Made by a program: the position numbers and the translations under genes
The notes under the pieces: model-generated
Seen by the model: the letters and a program-made list of their open reading frames with translations, nothing else
The model's database searches: none
Told to the model about the DNA's origin: nothing
Origin: an uncultured Acidobacteriaceae bacterium
GTDB lineage: Bacteria > Acidobacteriota > Terriglobia > Terriglobales > Acidobacteriaceae
NCBI GenBank assembly: GCA_963814335.1
Contig: CAWFCO010000005.1
Span: 848,492 to 912,491, forward strand
Reading direction: 5' to 3'
Length of the DNA: 64,000 bases
Part shown: positions 2,553 to 22,199 of the stretch, piece after piece
Layout: each line of letters starts with the position of its first letter
Position numbering within the stretch: position 1 is the first letter of the stretch

Positions 2553-3668
2553 ATGCCGGAAGTGCGCATCAGCCCGCGGGAGCGGCTGGTACTGACAAAG
2601 ACCATCGAACTGTATATCGCCACGGGAGAACCGGTGGCGTCGCAGGCGGTGGCACGTGCGCTGGCAGACAAAGACGGTCTGAGTTCGGCAACGATTCGCA
2701 ACGTGATGGCGGCCCTGGCGGATGCAGGCCTGCTGGAACAGCCACACACTTCGGCGGGACGTGTGCCGACAGCGGCGGCGTTCCGCTACCACGTCGCACA
2801 GATTACGCGGGTGGAGAATCCACTGGGTCAAGCGGGCGCGGCAATGCAAAGCGGCGCGGCGAAGAGCCCCATGAGTGCTGAGCGGCGCGGACAGATTGAA
2901 GAGAGTTTTAGCGGTGTGACTACCTCACACGAGTACCTGGAGCGGACGGCCCAGGTGCTGGCCCTGATCTCAAGCGGACTGGGCGTTGCCCTGGCGCGGG
3001 CCTCGGCAACGGATGTGCTGGAGCATATCCACTTTGCTCGACTGGCGACGGGACGCGTGCTGGCAGTGCTGGTAACGCAGGCTGGAGCGGTGCAGGATCG
3101 CGTGCTGACCGTAGACAAGGATCTAAGTCACGCAGAGCTGGAAACGGCAGCGCGGTACCTGAACGAGAACTTTCGCGGATGGGCCGTGGAACGAATTCGC
3201 GCAGAGGTTTCCCGGCGGGTGGAGCTGGATCGCGCGGCGTATCACCAACTGTTGCGATCAGTGGAAGAGTTGTGGCGCAAGAGCGCGCAGGCGGCGAGCG
3301 CCGCAGGACCGGATTTGTTTGTGGATGGAATGGCGAACCTGATTGCGGCCGAGGCAGACCGCGAACGGCTCCGCCAGATGTTGATGGCGCTGGAAGCCAA
3401 GCAGCGCCTAATTGAGCTGTTGACGGCCTATGTGGACGGGCGGCAGCACGAAGTACGCGTGGTGGTGGGGCTGGATGAGTCGCTGCCCGCGATGCAGGAC
3501 CTGGTGCTGTTCGGCGCGCCGGCCCGGCTGGGAGGCTCACGGCTGGGCGCGGTGGCGGTAATCGCACCCACGCGCATCCAATACCAGGAGATGATTCAGG
3601 CGGTTGGCTACATCGCCGGGCTCTCCGAGCGCATCTTAGAAGTACCCCCTGCGAAGGGTGTTCAATAG
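2553..3668 (+). CDS. hrcA: Heat-inducible transcription repressor HrcA
   Basis: N-terminal HTH with SSATIRNVMAALADAGLLEQPHTSAGRVPT; lies upstream of grpE-dnaJ. Confidence 0.97.
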   Translation: MPEVRISPRERLVLTKTIELYIATGEPVASQAVARALADKDGLSSATIRNVMAALADAGLLEQPHTSAGRVPTAAAFRYHVAQITRVENPLGQAGAAMQSGAAKSPMSAERRGQIEESFSGVTTSHEYLERTAQVLALISSGLGVALARASATDVLEHIHFARLATGRVLAVLVTQAGAVQDRVLTVDKDLSHAELETAARYLNENFRGWAVERIRAEVSRRVELDRAAYHQLLRSVEELWRKSAQAASAAGPDLFVDGMANLIAAEADRERLRQMLMALEAKQRLIELLTAYVDGRQHEVRVVVGLDESLPAMQDLVLFGAPARLGGSRLGAVAVIAPTRIQYQEMIQAVGYIAGLSERILEVPPAKGVQ

Positions 3669-3916
3669 GACCAGTTCACAATTATGGAAAGGCGGCGACG
3701 AGAGCCGATTTTTGCTCGCAACGCCACCCACCTCAGGACTGTGAACAGGCCCTAGACACAACGCGAGACAGGAAGGGCGGCGCGAGAAGCGCCACGGCGG
3801 GAGAGTTTACCTCGGAACGGTTTCTACACGCGTGAGGAACCTGGGTGGACAGCAAATTTCGCCGCGAAAATTTATCATTGAAAATGAAGAAGAGTCTTTG
3901 GAGATCGCGAAAAGGA

Positions 3917-16108: not shown

Positions 16109-17668
16109 TCAGGCCCAGTAGCTCCGATCCAGGGTCCTATATTGGATGGCTTCGGCGAGATGGGAGACGTTGAGGTGCTCAGCCCCTCCAAGGTCAGCGA
16201 TGGTTCGTGCGACCTTCAAAATACGGTCGTGGGCCCGGGCGGTGAGGCCTTGCTGCTGCATGGCGCGCTCGAGAAGTCGTTCGGCGTCGGCGCTGAGTTC
16301 GCAGTTGGCACGAACCTGGCGAGTGGTCATCTGGGCATTCGAGTAGATCTTTTCGCCCTGTTTCCGGAATCGGGCTCTCTGCCGCTCGCGGGCCGTGAGG
16401 ACCCGATCGCGGATCTCTGCTGAACCCTCTGCGGCGGCTCCACCGCGCAGCTCCTTGTATTGAACGGCGGGAACCTCGATATGAATATCAATGCGATCAA
16501 GCAGCGGCCCTGAGACTTTGGCGACATAGCGCTGGATCATGGGCGGAGTGCACATGCATTCGCGCGACTTGTCATTGAAGTAACCGCACGGGCAGGGATT
16601 CATGGCGGCAGCGAGCATGAAGCGCGCGGGAAAGCTGAGTGACATGGAAGCGCGCGCAATGGTGACCGTGTGGTCCTCAAGCGGCTGGCGCATCACTTCG
16701 AGGACATTGCGCGGGAATTCTGGCAGTTCATCGAGGAAGAGCAGTCCGTTGTGAGCGAGCGACACCTCACCGGGCCGAGGGACGATGCCTCCGCCAATAA
16801 GGCCGGCGTCTGAAATCGTGTGATGCGGAGCGCGGAAGGGCCGCTGAGTGACGAGGCCCTGCGCGGCATCGAGGACCCCGGCGACAGAGTGAATTTTGGT
16901 GGTCTCCAAGGCCTCTTCAAATGTGAGCGGCGCCAGGATGGACGGCAAACGCTTGGCGAGCATGGTTTTGCCTGAACCAGGAGGGCCGATCATGAGGATG
17001 TTGTGGCTACCGGCAGCGGCTACTTCCAGCGCGCGCTTGGCGGTCTGCTGGCCGCGAACGTCTTTGAAGTCGACGGAGAAATGCTGCAACTCGCCCAGCA
17101 GGGTTTCATTCGATACCTTGAAGGGCTCTCGCTGCACTACTCCGACGACAGAACGGTTGAGGAGGTCGATGACGTCAGTAAGTGATGAGACGGGGTAGAC
17201 GTTCACTCCCTCCACGACCGCGGCTTCTGCTGCGTTCTGCGCGGGAAGGAGGAAGTTTGGAATGTTCCTTTCGCGCGCGAGGATGGCCATCGGCAAGACG
17301 CCGGGGACAGGACGCAGGCTGCCGTCAAGCCCGAGTTCGCCGACGATGAGGAACTGGCTGACATCTGAAACCTGAAGGGCGCCGTAAGCTCCGAGGATGC
17401 TGAGCGCGATTGGGAGGTCAAATCCGGAGCCTTCCTTTTTGATGTCCGCAGGCGCAAGGTTGACGGTGATGAAGGTGGGAGGAATGAGATAGCCGGAGTT
17501 TTTGATGGCGGCACGGACGCGGTTGCGGCTTTCGCGGACGGCGGTGTCCGGCAGCCCGACTGTCTGAAACTGGTCCTTATCAAGGACCGATCCACTGTAG
17601 TCGACTTCCACGTCGATGAGGTTGGCGTCTATTCCGTAAACTGCAGCGCTGAGAGCTTTAAAGAGCAT
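16109..17668 (-). CDS. comM: YifB/ComM family Mg-chelatase-like AAA+ ATPase
   Basis: [72 protein letters not shown]. Confidence 0.93.
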
Positions 17669-17684
17669 GGTATGAGTGGAGGGC

Positions 17685-17727
17685 AGTCTAGCACTGGAAA
17701 CGACGGCGCACTGTGACGAACGTCAGG
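17685..17727 (-). promoter_or_regulatory. Class II CRP/FNR-family promoter for comM/yifB
   Basis: -10 TAGACT (17690-17685); TGTGA-N6-TCAGG at 17712-17727 is centred 41.5 bp upstream of the implied +1 (17678). Confidence 0.55.
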
Positions 17728-17823
17728 TATGTTGACACGAATGTGGGAGATGAAGGCTCATGGCGGTGTGTTAGTGTCGCATCGAATGCCGCAACAGGGG
17801 CTCCAGAAGCGAGATAAGCACAC

Positions 17824-18909
17824 ATGGCCTTGAGTAAGAGCGGAGGCAAAGCCTCCCGGAATGACTTTCGCAACTCGATTGACACTGTTGAACACCTGGT
17901 GGACGTGGTGCATCAGCTGTCATTGGCGAAGAGTTTTGACACGATTGTGGACATTGTGCGGGGCGAAGCACGCGCACTCCTGAACGCGGATGGCGCAACT
18001 GTGATTGTGCGCGACGGAGAATTCAGTTTTTACGTGGACGAGGATGCAATTTCTCCACTTTGGAAGGGCGCCCGTATCCCGCACTCGGCTTGCGTGAGTG
18101 GCTGGGTGATGGATCAGAAGCACGCAGTGGCCATCAAGGACGTATTTGACGACAAGCGAATTACGGGAGACCTCTATCGGTCCACCTTTGTCCATGCGAT
18201 GGCCATGGCGCCGATTCGTACGGCAGACCCTCTGGGAGCCATCGGAGTGTATTGGGCAACCAAATGCGAGGCCTCGGATGAGCAGATGCGACTGCTGCAG
18301 GTCCTGGCGGACGCCACGGCAGTGGCATTGGAAGACGTGGCGATTCAGCAGGAACTGGAAGAGCGGGTGAATGAACGCAACAGCCAGCTGGAGGCAGCAC
18401 ATCGAGAGTTGCGCGAACTCACTCTGATGGACGAGGTGACTGGACTGTATAACCGCAGAGGGTTTGAGCTGCTTGCAACGCAACTGTTGGGAGTGGCGCA
18501 ACGCTCGCATGCAATGTCGTGGCTGTTGCTGGCCGATATCGATGGGCTACAACCGGTAAACGATGGACTGGGCCAGTCGGCTGGCAACCAATTGCTGGAG
18601 TCCGCAGCAAGAATTTTGCGGGAAGCATTTCGAGGCTGTGATGTGATGGCCCGCCTGGACGAGGCGGAGTTTGCCGTATTTGGAGTCAGCAACCCGCATC
18701 CGGCGGATTTTGCCGAGCGGCTCCAGCTCTATATCGACGCTCACAACCAGACCAGCGGCGCGGCCGTTCCACTTGCAATGTGCATTGGTCTCGCACAGTT
18801 AAGCATGTCCGACAGTCCAACTTTGGGCGACCTGCTGAACAAGGCGGAAGAAGCCGTTTTGAAGACGAAGCGGACGCGGCGTAATCCTGGAAGTGTCGCA
18901 ATCGGCTGA
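17824..18909 (+). CDS. GAF + coiled-coil + degenerate GGDEF protein (probable c-di-GMP receptor)
   Basis: GAF domain; DEVTGLYNRR; active-site motif is DEAEF; RGCD I-site sits five residues upstream. Confidence 0.85.
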   Translation: MALSKSGGKASRNDFRNSIDTVEHLVDVVHQLSLAKSFDTIVDIVRGEARALLNADGATVIVRDGEFSFYVDEDAISPLWKGARIPHSACVSGWVMDQKHAVAIKDVFDDKRITGDLYRSTFVHAMAMAPIRTADPLGAIGVYWATKCEASDEQMRLLQVLADATAVALEDVAIQQELEERVNERNSQLEAAHRELRELTLMDEVTGLYNRRGFELLATQLLGVAQRSHAMSWLLLADIDGLQPVNDGLGQSAGNQLLESAARILREAFRGCDVMARLDEAEFAVFGVSNPHPADFAERLQLYIDAHNQTSGAAVPLAMCIGLAQLSMSDSPTLGDLLNKAEEAVLKTKRTRRNPGSVAIG

Positions 18910-18947
18910 TTCATTCTGTGGCGGCGGTGAAGCGCTAGAATCACACA

Positions 18948-19103
18948 GTGGCCACGAGTCTTTTCGACCTGTACAAGATCGGCGTAGGACCCTCAAGCTC
19001 GCACACAATGGGGCCGATGAAGGCGGCGTGCGCGTTTGCGACCGAACTTTTTACCGAAGACTCCAATGAGGCGTGGCACATTCCGCAAGAGTCGATCAAG
19101 TGA
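18948..19103 (+). pseudogene. Truncated sdaA 5' fragment (first ~31 SdaA-like codons fused to 20 foreign codons, 51 aa)
   Basis: [51 protein letters not shown]; TAGAAT -10 at 18936-18941 is 6 nt upstream of the GTG. Confidence 0.8.
18954..19039 (+). repeat. Direct repeat copy 1 of sdaA 5' end (86 bp)
   Basis: Matches 19821-19906 with 2 synonymous mismatches; the last 74 bp are identical. Confidence 0.97.
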
Positions 19104-19807
19104 TTACTCGCGAAACTATAGTCCGGTGCGCACGCAATGCTGCCTCCCTTGCTCTGCTCATCATTGCGGGCATGATTATCATGTTTCTCCTCCGCAGCCT
19201 TTTGGATGGCCGATTTCGAAGTTCCTTGAGAATCTGGCTTCTCGTCTGCAAAATGTCAGCCGTTTCATTCGGAATTGTTTTTGCGGTCTTCTTCATTTGG
19301 AACATCATCAGCGCTAAACGTTCGCAGCTTCTTTGGGATGCTCTGGAAGTGGAGACATCTGAGTCAGAGTTGCTCGCAGTGCCACTGTTTGGTTTTGTGG
19401 CGATGGAGTTTTACTGGCTTATTTTGAACCGCACATATGTCGTTTTTGTTGCACGGGAAGGACTATACGGCTGGAAGGCATCAGGGCCGGTTACTAATTC
19501 AGACCGTCGATATTTCGTACCTTTTCAGGAGATGGTTGAAGACCAGGAACTAATGAAAGATATGCCAGCAATTCGCAACTTAGCAGGCTTGCGCGGCGGT
19601 TTCTTCTACGCCGCTTCAACCCTTTTGTCAGTCGCCTCAGATTCCAAAAGCCAATGGGGAATGGGCGGAATTGAACATTCCGGGCACGTCAAAGTCCGTT
19701 TATCTTTGGGGAAAACTCACAATTTCATTCTTCTAGGGTCTGTCTTGCCTGAAGACGTTCGGGACCGCATTACTAAGACACTTGGGGTTGGAATAACATC
19801 GGTTTGA
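19100..19807 (+). CDS. Hypothetical membrane protein (two N-terminal TM segments) carried between the repeats
   Basis: Long ORF (from 19073), visibly more AT-rich than flanks. GTG 19100 overlaps the TGA of the truncated sdaA ORF; true start uncertain. Confidence 0.7.
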
Positions 19808-19817
19808 GTGGTAATCC

Positions 19818-21236
19818 ATGACGAGTCTCTTTGACCTGTACAAGATCGGCGTAGGACCCTCAAGCTCGCACACAATGGGGCCGATGAAGGCGGCGTGCGC
19901 GTTTGCACGGGGGCTGGCCGAGCGAGGCTTGCTTGAACGCGCGAAACGTGTCCGGGTTGACCTGTATGGGTCACTGGCGCTTACCGGTAAAGGGCATGGC
20001 ACGGACCGCGCGGTGTTGCTGGGGCTGTCTGGATTTGAGCCGGCGACAATCGATCCATCCGCAATCGAGTCGACTGTGGCGAAGATTCGCCTTGAGAAGA
20101 AGCTTGCTCTGAATGGCTCGACGATTCTGTTCTTCGATGAGGCCGACTCGCTCTTCGAGCACAGGGACACACTTTGCCCGCCGGGGGCGAAGATTGACCA
20201 CCCGAATGGAATGCGCTTCGCAGCGTTGGACGCCGCAGGATCACAGATTGAGACGCGGACGTTCTTTTCGATTGGCGGAGGTTTCATTGTGGAGGACGGA
20301 GAGAACGCTGCCAATCAACCGCTCATCCAGAATGAAGTGCAGGTGCCGTTTCCGTTTCACACTGCGGCAGAGATGCTTCGCATTGCCGGCGCCAATGAGA
20401 TATCGATCAGCCAGCTGATGCTGGAGAACGAGTGCGCGCGGATGAGCCACACGGGCACGCTTGCTCCGGTGGATCAAGTGAGGGCAGGAATTGAGCGCAT
20501 CTGGCAGACAATGCGCGATTGCGTTGCCCGCGGGATTGCGACGGAAGGAATTCTGCCGGGCGGGTTGAATGTGCGGCGACGAGCGCATCGGTTGGCCGAT
20601 CGGCTGCACGAGAAGGAAGCCAATGGATTGCGCAGTGACCCGCTGGCGCCGTTGGACTGGGTAACGGTCTTCGCGATGGCGGTCAATGAGGAGAATGCGG
20701 CCGGAGGACGCGTCGTGACGGCCCCGACGAATGGAGCGGCAGGTGTGGTTCCGGCAGTGGCGCACTATTACGAGCGATTCGCTCCGGAGGCAGACGAGGA
20801 AGGTATTCTGCGGTTCTTCCTAGCTTCTGCGGCGATTGGGATTCTTTATAAGGAGAATGCGTCCATCAGTGGGGCGGAGGTTGGCTGCCAGGGCGAGGTT
20901 GGAGTTGCGTGTTCGATGGCTGCCGGCGGTCTGGTGGCGGCGTTGGACGGCACGAACGGGCAGATTGAGCATGCGGCGGAGATTGCGATGGAGCACAACC
21001 TGGGTATGACGTGCGACCCGATCGGCGGCCTGGTCCAGATCCCCTGCATTGAGCGCAATGCGATGGGCGCCGTAAAGGCTGTGCACGCGGCACGGATTGC
21101 GATGAACGAGACCGAAGAGCACAAAGTGTCGCTCGACCAGGTGATCAAGACGATGTATCAGACTGGACTCGACATGCAGTCGCGGTACAAAGAGACGAGC
21201 CTGGCCGGGCTCGCGCTGAACATTATCGAATGCTGA
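19818..21236 (+). CDS. sdaA: L-serine ammonia-lyase (Fe-S dependent, single chain)
   Basis: [78 protein letters not shown]. Confidence 0.97.
   Translation: MTSLFDLYKIGVGPSSSHTMGPMKAACAFARGLAERGLLERAKRVRVDLYGSLALTGKGHGTDRAVLLGLSGFEPATIDPSAIESTVAKIRLEKKLALNGSTILFFDEADSLFEHRDTLCPPGAKIDHPNGMRFAALDAAGSQIETRTFFSIGGGFIVEDGENAANQPLIQNEVQVPFPFHTAAEMLRIAGANEISISQLMLENECARMSHTGTLAPVDQVRAGIERIWQTMRDCVARGIATEGILPGGLNVRRRAHRLADRLHEKEANGLRSDPLAPLDWVTVFAMAVNEENAAGGRVVTAPTNGAAGVVPAVAHYYERFAPEADEEGILRFFLASAAIGILYKENASISGAEVGCQGEVGVACSMAAGGLVAALDGTNGQIEHAAEIAMEHNLGMTCDPIGGLVQIPCIERNAMGAVKAVHAARIAMNETEEHKVSLDQVIKTMYQTGLDMQSRYKETSLAGLALNIIEC
19821..19906 (+). repeat. Direct repeat copy 2 of sdaA 5' end (86 bp)
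   Basis: See copy 1; offset 867 bp. Confidence 0.97.
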
Positions 21237-21245
21237 AGACGTGGG

Positions 21246-22199
21246 TTGCGTCGTTGTGATGGCGACTTAAATGCGATAGAAGGAAGGACCGATTTGGCAG
21301 AGCAGGAACCACAGGATGAATTGAATGAACAGGGTGTTCCACGCCCCTTGGTCCCTGTGACCTCGAACTCCGCTCAGATCGACCCTGCGCATGCGCAGGA
21401 AGCGACGCCAATGGAAGCGACTGGTACTGCACAGAGGCGTGGCATTGCGCCGTGGTGGCATACGGCCGTGTTGATTTCCGGGATTCTGCTGCTGTCCCTC
21501 ACCGGATCCAAGAGGTTGGGAATGACCAACGGCCATGGGTCCCATCGCATGGTCATGTATGGCATGACCATCGCCATGCAGCTGGTGATGCTTGGCTGGG
21601 TGTGGTTGGGAATGAAGCTGGGCAAGGTGCCGTTCCTCACTCTCTATGGAGTGCGGCGCAGAGGTGCGAAAGCATGGTTCATCGACGTCGGGATCGCACT
21701 TTTGTTCTGGTGGGTATCTCTCTTTGTACTGGGGTCTCTCAACCTGGGTTGGTTGACGGTTGACGCGGCCGTGCATCATCGTCCGCTGCCGATGCACGCG
21801 GGAAAAATGTCGGAAGTCGATCCGGCGCAGCGCCATCAGGTGCGATTGATTTCGCAACTTGCGCCGGAAGGCGGAGCGGAATTTGCAATGTGGTTTGTGC
21901 TGTGTGCGGTGGTTGGCGTGGTGGAAGAGACTGTGTTTCGCGGGTATCTGCAAAGCCAGTTCACGGCCTGGGGTGGCGGAAAAGCCGCGTACGGCGTGGT
22001 GTTTTCAGCACTCATGTTTGGAGCCGCGCACGGATACGAGGGATATCGCAGCATGGTTTTGCTCGCCGTGTTCGGAGTTTTGTTTAGCGTGCTCGTGCTG
22101 TTACGACGCAGTTTGCGATCCTGCATCTATGCGCATGCATGGCACGATTTCGTAACTGGAATCACGCTTGCGTTGCTGCGTTCTCATCACGTGTTGTGA
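21246..22199 (+). CDS. CPBP (Abi/CAAX protease-like) intramembrane metalloprotease
   Basis: EETVFRGYL, FGAAH and HAWHD motifs; multiple TM segments. Start uncertain (alternatives 21321, 21411). Confidence 0.88.
   Translation: MRRCDGDLNAIEGRTDLAEQEPQDELNEQGVPRPLVPVTSNSAQIDPAHAQEATPMEATGTAQRRGIAPWWHTAVLISGILLLSLTGSKRLGMTNGHGSHRMVMYGMTIAMQLVMLGWVWLGMKLGKVPFLTLYGVRRRGAKAWFIDVGIALLFWWVSLFVLGSLNLGWLTVDAAVHHRPLPMHAGKMSEVDPAQRHQVRLISQLAPEGGAEFAMWFVLCAVVGVVEETVFRGYLQSQFTAWGGGKAAYGVVFSALMFGAAHGYEGYRSMVLLAVFGVLFSVLVLLRRSLRSCIYAHAWHDFVTGITLALLRSHHVL

Follow-up and report, generated by a model that had tools for sequence, protein, structure and literature searches.

A gene added between two copies of the sdaA 5′ end in a Terracidiphilus genome, probably a scar of the host's own recombination

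We analysed a stretch of 64,000 nucleotides (the window) from the genome of an uncultured soil acidobacterium of the genus Terracidiphilus, family Acidobacteriaceae (assembly GCA_963814335.1, contig CAWFCO010000005.1, positions 848,492 to 912,491), in which sdaA, the gene for L-serine ammonia-lyase, has its 5′ end doubled. A repeat search of positions 17500-22000 returned two direct copies of 86 nt, identical at 84 positions (98%), with starts 867 nt apart; the 781 bp between them form an insert with a gene that we call X. The other repeat families in the same region were at most 30 nt long and 64-93% identical, so a chance origin of the 86-nt repeat is excluded. The copies differ at repeat positions 9 and 12 (CTT TTC versus CTC TTT), both differences being synonymous, and are then identical for 74 nt, just as a preliminary description of the window had stated. 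The insert-bearing stretch is single-copy in the whole assembly (4.78 Mb in 8 contigs), and the sdaA 5′ motif occurs in it only at these two places.

The layout of the locus is given in Table 1. Copy 1 lies behind a promoter and within a truncated reading frame, whose TGA (19101-19103) overlaps the GTG of X in the string GTGA. The leaderless-type promoter (TAGAAT, 6 nt, GTG), the 51-aa truncated SdaA with its stop over a GTG, and the new ATG that copy 2 was said to supply to an intact sdaA were all confirmed, the last as ATG 19818 opening a full-length protein of 472 aa. The AT-richer membrane-protein gene of the earlier account was also found: GC content is 47-50% in the insert and 58-62% in the flanks, and the structural model of X has two membrane helices. 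Both flanks consist of syntenic housekeeping genes typical of those relatives in which a GAF-GGDEF gene precedes sdaA (the GGDEF clade). The comM gene on the left shares 82-90% identity with that of all relatives and is invariably oriented towards the interval; its orthologues are listed with Pfam ChlI/Mg_chelatase. An Rfam scan of 18600-20100 matched no family, and a simple promoter and terminator scan of the region returned nothing decisive.

Table 1. Features of the comM-sdaA interval (window positions) and repeat-bracketed loci elsewhere in the genome (contig positions)
Feature	Position	Strand	Remarks
comM/YifB-like (Mg-chelatase-like) gene	16109..17668	-	open reading frame (ORF); conserved left border of the variable interval
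GAF-GGDEF gene	17824..18909	+	Pfam GAF_2 and GGDEF; resident neighbour upstream of sdaA in the clade; orthologues directly before sdaA in the closest relatives 82-87% identical
TAGAAT -10 box, predicted resident leaderless sdaA promoter	18936..18941	+	6 nt, then GTG 18948
Remnant ORF, 51 codons	18948..19103	+	SdaA residues 1-31 plus 20 unrelated codons; SDH_beta E 6.5e-15
Repeat copy 1, resident type, promoter-linked	18954..19039	.	start GTG GCC ACG AGT CTT TTC, as in closest relatives
60 nt taken to have arrived with X	19040..19099	+	homologous to the X-upstream region of relatives
Gene X, 235 aa	19100..19807	+	start GTG 19100 set by homologue alignment
10-nt spacer, X stop to sdaA ATG	19808..19817	+	X-allele type; 4-10 nt in relatives
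Repeat copy 2, 5′ end of working sdaA	19821..19906	.	first 15 nt (ATG ACG AGT CTC TTT) of X-allele type
Intact sdaA, L-serine ammonia-lyase (iron-sulfur type), 472 aa	19818..21236	+	Pfam SDH_beta E 3.5e-56, SDH_alpha E 6.2e-90
Rce1-like (CPBP) protease gene	21246..22199	+	Pfam; conserved right flank, synteny kept in relatives
Locus B	C6:835828-839329		137-nt repeat (98.5%) of the 3′ end of ispG (IspG/GcpE); 3.2-kb insert, 50% GC
Locus D	C5:370277-372128		89-nt repeat (93%) of 20 codons of a minus-strand gene and the 29 nt preceding them; TetR and nitroreductase genes lie between the copies
Locus A	C7:301388-303317; L047 in G463		88-nt repeat of an rpsA-like 3′ end with its terminator hairpin, around an HTH and HipA module

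In an AlphaFold model (pLDDT 86) the product of X combines two long membrane helices with a seven-stranded domain that carries a C-terminal helix. This C-terminal domain is PH-like, the top Foldseek matches in the PDB being mostly PH domains, with weak scores (E ~3e-3); no Pfam and no NCBIfam family matched. A homologue search returned 112 clusters, the best 59% identical, and the family consists of hypothetical proteins of ~235 aa, whose few source-named members all come from Acidobacteriaceae. X adjoins sdaA directly upstream in Terracidiphilus and secA in Edaphobacter aggregans. Its low GC could be taken as a mark of recent import. We rejected that reading: in every genome compared, the GC content of X is below that of its flanks, and its composition in the window therefore gives no date for the event.

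What lies between comM (minus strand) and sdaA varies across the genus, and six states were found. Nothing separates comM from sdaA in nine sampled species. The GGDEF gene alone lies between them in G013, G019 and L039/L040/L043, and is preceded by a gene for a GT87-like protein in L041 (= G463) and L042. X alone, with no repeat, occupies the interval in G002, G015, G032 and more than 30 contigs from metagenome-assembled genomes (MAGs) or metagenomes. The remaining two states contain an sdaA remnant: the order comM, GGDEF gene, remnant, X, sdaA was seen in the window genome only, and the order comM, X, remnant, GGDEF gene, sdaA in one peat-bog population, the two being the only cases found of the repeat-bracketed form at sdaA. 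Among 400 genomes of the family, no duplicated sdaA 5′ motif was found besides that of the window genome. X is thus an ordinary neighbour of sdaA, not exotic or mobile cargo.

The state of the interval is reflected in the start of sdaA. Without X upstream (16 genus relatives, the five closest contigs, L049 and L065), the start codon of sdaA is GTG, or ATG in one species, and follows TA(C/G)AAT at 6-7 nt, an arrangement that carries the signature of a leaderless transcript. Behind X, sdaA starts with ATG or TTG 4-10 nt past the X stop and has no TA(C/G)AAT box; its first codons in X-bearing relatives read ATG ACS AGY CTC TTY. The window holds one start of each kind, copy 1 having that of its own clade and copy 2 the X-linked one. 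X in those relatives is mostly preceded by TGGACA, 17 nt, T(T/C)(T/A)AAT (usually TTAAAT) and 7-8 nt before its ATG (for example, L036:320-358 and L062:2440-2500), and, because this promoter-like motif is conserved at such a distance from the start, X is probably leaderless there itself. In the window the motif is degraded (19060-19092), with ACTCCA and AAGAGT in place of TGGACA and TTAAAT.

By both flanks, the closest relatives of the window genome (SdaA 88-89%, GGDEF protein 84-87% identical) fall into two lineages, L039/L040/L042/L043 and L041. All five of these contigs have an empty site, in which the GGDEF stop is followed by ~38 nt with GCTAGAATCACA and then by the GTG GCC AC(G/A) AGT of a single sdaA copy, with no X. 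An empty site beginning GTG GCC ACG AGT had been predicted, and this is what both lineages contain, with the third codon varying as given. The sdaA of the window is nearer to lineages of the GGDEF clade than to any X-bearing relative in every 120-nt segment, so we take the resident allele to have been of the GGDEF type and X to be what was added. Because the 60 nt preceding X can be aligned with sequence upstream of X in relatives, we read 19039|19040 as an illegitimate joint of sdaA nt 92 to a point 60 nt upstream of X; beyond copy 1 no continuing sdaA homology was found (best 7/12 identities, not significant). The preliminary description would have been refuted if all relatives had X before sdaA without a repeat. 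This is borne out by half: more than 30 of them have that arrangement; the closest lineages lack X.

The peat-bog population presents the mirror image of the arrangement in the window: comM, X, an sdaA remnant, ~400 nt, the GGDEF gene and an sdaA with a TACAAT-GTG start (L065:3193-4921; also L066, L068, L069, L070 and L072). The six contigs come from six samples, are 99.9% identical and Terracidiphilus-like. Their remnant is ATG-started, spans 27 sdaA codons (in a 45-codon ORF) and has decayed, with 85% identity over 80 nt when compared with the working copy; the illegitimate joint lies at sdaA +81, compared with +92 in the window. Different cargo between duplicated sdaA 5′ ends, another expectation of the earlier account, is thus found in these contigs, where the cargo is GGDEF. 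A further difference separates two members of one species, L042 and L043, of which the first has and the second lacks a GT87-like gene of 459 aa between comM and the GGDEF gene. In L042 this gene is bracketed by a 100-nt repeat of the comM start and spacer (1917-2016 and 3604-3703, 68 nt identical), the remnant copy having diverged in its comM-coding part; L043 retains exactly one copy (2902-3001). Such presence and absence with one copy left makes plausible the proposal that excision between repeats can restore an ancestral locus. Given the mirror event and the L042/L043 difference, the comM-sdaA interval is a recombination hot spot in the sense of that account. Of the recombinase-free cassette hot spot suggested at the outset, the hot spot therefore stands and the cassette does not, since X is an ordinary sdaA neighbour without repeats in more than 30 relatives.

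These contigs also bear on whether the structure is real. From the absence of the exact junction in public metagenome contigs one might suspect an assembly error, either a chimera of two strain variants or a duplication that was mis-assembled. Strain mixing, however, cannot yield the left junction (sdaA nt 92 to X-upstream sequence), because neither allele type contains it. Besides differing at two positions, the copies have different start codons; the 8-contig assembly carries them on a contig of 1.03 Mb; and analogous structures occur in six independent peat samples and in an NCBI MAG. The left junction is novel, and typical reads are longer than the 86-nt repeat, which makes an assembly duplication unlikely; we find an artefact of either sort hardly credible.

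Comparable structures are present elsewhere in the genome. When the assembly was compared with itself, 14 direct repeats emerged that are local, unique and present in two copies. Those of the short class measure 62, 63, 71, 77, 86, 88, 89, 91 and 137 nt, and at least the five that were examined duplicate a gene end around a small insert. No tRNA genes were found at these scars, and the inserts of the various scars share no sequence, termini or terminal motif. Three loci were compared with the close relative G463 (Table 1). At locus B, G463 has an empty site with one copy. At locus D it also has an empty site; the remnant copy agrees with G463 at 6/6 variable positions and the working copy differs, while identity to G463 is 85% in the gene body and 94% in the other flank. 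Both the gene body and the working copy at locus D look imported, and the locus fits a one-sided replacement. Since the remnant equals G463 and the working copy does not, the two are of different origins, and we rejected a transposon-type target-site duplication. Locus A is common to both species, with copies 96.6% alike within each genome and ~87% between genomes. Its repeats evolve in concert, which indicates gene conversion, so the near-identity of such repeats is no clock for the age of an insertion.

The same set of scars bears on the idea of a site-specific unit, that is, an 867-bp satellite-like element at an att site in the sdaA 5′ end, served by an integrase in trans and carrying a replacement gene start. 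Direct repeats at a gene end with the gene restored do resemble attL and attR, and several scars are of similar length (86, 88, 89 and 91 nt). Nevertheless, the joints differ between events (+92 and +81), the inserts at other scars lack a common sequence or terminal motif, the copies at locus D come from different lineages, X stands before sdaA without repeats in more than 30 relatives, and the genome holds no second copy of the unit. The insert encodes X alone, with no recombinase fold, in agreement with the statement in the preliminary description that no integrase is present. We therefore regard a site-specific unit as very improbable. Neither an integrase, nor inverted repeats, nor sequence shared with other inserts was detected in the insert, which supports recombination by the host.

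In our opinion, the structure is likely to be an insertion scar and not a mobile element, an X-sdaA allele having been stacked behind the resident GGDEF gene, promoter and sdaA start by the host's own recombination. The resident state would have been that of the closest relatives, with comM, the GAF-GGDEF gene, and sdaA starting at GTG behind a leaderless promoter. The incoming DNA would have come from another Terracidiphilus with the alternative allele, in which comM is followed by X and an ATG-started sdaA. This DNA would have undergone a homologous exchange at its right end, within the opening bases of sdaA, and an illegitimate joining at its left end, 60 nt upstream of X. That end could have joined the fragment's own other end, forming a circle that was then integrated by a single (Campbell-type) crossover, or it could have joined the resident strand directly at sdaA nt 92, as in homology-facilitated illegitimate recombination. 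Either route would give the same product, with the resident promoter and 31 sdaA codons left as a remnant, followed by X and the new sdaA ATG.

The hybrid make-up of the two copies bears on the route. Copy 2 is of donor type in its first 15 nt only, and the other 74 nt are equal in both copies and of resident type; this identical core might be resident-derived on both sides, or might have been homogenised through gene conversion. Single-crossover integration of a small circle, as first proposed, is one possible route to the scar and the circle itself a hypothesis, as homology-facilitated illegitimate recombination gives the same product and the cores are resident in type, not hybrid as a diverged circle would leave them. 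The two copies could recombine with each other, deleting X and restoring the empty site; an excised circle, if one formed, would read outward from X as ...GGTAATCCATG-repeat-GACCGAAC....

Several observations weigh against recombination with an X-bearing donor in the simple form given above. Both cores encode PMKAAC, a signature of the resident clade, and every known X-type allele encodes PMRAAC. Identity of the 74-nt core to any relative is 72-84%, and the unbroken matches are 6-29 nt long, mostly 6-14 nt; a diverged donor could hardly cross over there, and the donor should therefore have been conspecific, or the duplication resident-derived, or the core converted later. No closer donor of X was found, the best homologue being the one at 59% identity, and the exact left junction was absent from the metagenome contigs searched. 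The sdaA tree joins the window genome and the two empty-site lineages in an unresolved trichotomy, so the insertion could be old and the empty sites secondary losses. A donor-type tract in sdaA beyond copy 2 was looked for and not detected; the gene is clade-like in every 120-nt segment, which agrees with a GGDEF-type resident. One lead to a donor, P0120 (SdaA 80% identical, MTS start), was discarded, as its sdaA is leaderless and has no X.

The trichotomy leaves room for a different timing within the same class of mechanism. The order GGDEF gene, sdaA remnant, X, sdaA might have been ancestral to the clade, the two closest lineages having lost X between the repeats and the copies in the window genome having been kept alike by gene conversion. 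Repeat-by-repeat deletion would yield exactly the empty site seen, the L042/L043 polymorphism is such a loss or gain inside one species, and locus A demonstrates concerted evolution. The promoter motif of X is degraded, and X has diverged from other X genes as expected for vertical descent. Yet one or two independent losses would be needed against one gain, the copies in the window have 2 differences where the peat remnant has decayed to 85%, and the GC deficit of X in the window is the largest among all X genes. We consider such an old arrangement possible but doubtful; a single gain in the window genome would be the simplest account of the timing.

The product would look alike if the polarity were reversed, with a resident comM-X-sdaA allele receiving the GGDEF gene, the promoter and sdaA nt 1-92 on DNA anchored in comM, its right end being joined illegitimately 60 nt upstream of X. 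Being highly conserved, comM would be a good anchor, and the peat lineage is precisely an X-type resident that received GGDEF. In the window genome, however, sdaA and the downstream genes belong to the GGDEF clade along their full length, and the closest genomes are all of GGDEF type. The remnant is the resident's copy both in the peat population and at locus D, and that of the window is linked to GGDEF. Moreover, 86 nt of near-identity at the incoming end should have led to recombination in sdaA and to the deletion of X. Reversed polarity is thus distinctly improbable, and we retain the addition of X to a GGDEF-type resident as the preferred reading.

If X was added in this way, it would have come under the control of the resident promoter. 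The remnant ORF, X and sdaA could be read as one leaderless transcript, the remnant ORF being translated from GTG 18948, X through the GTGA stop/start overlap and sdaA from its imported ATG. Translation of X through the overlap is suggested by the degraded state of its own promoter motif, a state that would fit dependence on a captured promoter.

We compared the structure with known systems. It is like Campbell-type insertion-duplication, known from laboratory insertion-duplication mutagenesis, in that the insert is bracketed by direct repeats of the homologous segment, the target gene is kept intact by the incoming gene start, reversion can proceed via the repeats, and no dedicated recombinase takes part. 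In E. coli, DNA with one-sided homology gave mostly single crossovers of circular molecules, which left duplications of 109-950 bp (PMC3240628). The event in the window differs in being natural and in its very short repeat (86 nt versus 109-950 bp); it is known here from sequence, and its hybrid make-up is visible in the first 15 nt only. Homology-facilitated illegitimate recombination in natural transformation (de Vries and Wackernagel 2002; Prudhomme et al. 2002; Meier and Wackernagel 2003, all as cited in PMC5361080) has been invoked for stacked immunity genes of type VI secretion systems (T6SS) (PMC5361080). The locus shares with it one homologous anchor (the right junction in the sdaA 5′ end), one non-homologous joint (19039|19040) and a foreign neighbour gene added beside a conserved gene; locus D, with a foreign working copy and body and a resident remnant, fits well. 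Classical products of this process, in contrast, are insertions with deletion of resident DNA, whereas the joint in the window lies inside the anchor gene and a short duplicate is left.

The orphan modules of Rhs, contact-dependent inhibition (CDI) and T6SS effector-immunity arrays (PMC3967940, PMC5361080) are alike in that a new allele is stacked beside the old one, the displaced piece keeps a fragment of the conserved region, and the repeated fragments permit later recombination. Those, however, are polymorphic toxin loci with variable 3′ tips, while in the window a housekeeping enzyme gene contributes its 5′ end as the constant part (at other loci it is a gene 3′ end), and what is stacked are alternative neighbour genes upstream. 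Integrative elements in gene ends, such as prophages and islands in tRNA or protein genes, likewise have direct repeats at a gene end and a gene restored by the incoming copy, but the structure in the window lacks an integrase, a conserved att core and an element family, and relatives have the same gene at the same place without repeats. In contrast to a transposon target-site duplication, the duplication here is 86 nt long and there are no terminal inverted repeats at its ends. By these comparisons, the structure fails both as an integrase-driven element and as a transposon. The class of mechanism is already known; what lifts the case above routine is the comparative series together with four scars of 86-91 nt.

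As to competence, a ComEC gene alone was noticed in the genome; most bacteria have one, so that it says little.

Four gene-end repeats of the window genome measure 86, 88, 89 and 91 nt, within an overall range of 62-137 nt. The clustering may be due to chance together with a stability filter, or to a stereotyped distance of the joint. In the latter case Terracidiphilus would add and remove neighbour genes in a stereotyped, recombinase-free manner, the incoming DNA pairing via a conserved gene end and being joined a short characteristic distance inside the homology, for example, where the displaced strand of a D-loop is cut. We put this forward as a speculation, and an unlikely one. Were it correct, reversible, scar-bracketed gene stacks would be found genome-wide, their scars kept alike by gene conversion and serving as excision sites, and alternative alleles of a locus would be accumulated and toggled, not replaced.

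The locus would be a clean natural record of bacterial gene gain without mobile-element machinery, through one homologous and one illegitimate event. The process is unusually traceable, with an empty site, a mirror event, presence and absence within a species, two loci whose empty sites are seen in a relative, and another locus that evolves in concert. Near-identical flanking repeats are, by the same token, an unreliable sign of recent insertion, and a resident leaderless promoter could be captured to drive a newcomer gene. Such scars suggest a route to reversible gene content that can be tested in soil Acidobacteria, where genetic tools and knowledge of gene exchange are scarce.

Some further observations were made at the locus and in the genome. 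The GAF-GGDEF protein (17824-18909) has RLDEAEF at the position expected to read GGDEF and is therefore probably not an active cyclase. A unique 91-nt repeat surrounds an esterase gene that follows a DUF4142 gene (C5:819164-820180), and a unique 71-nt repeat surrounds a 5.4-kb islet of PIN/RHH-like small genes (C3:13549-19121); the flanks of both were not found in G463. Finally, a 6-nt unit is repeated perfectly in tandem over ~450 nt at C6:587596-588045.

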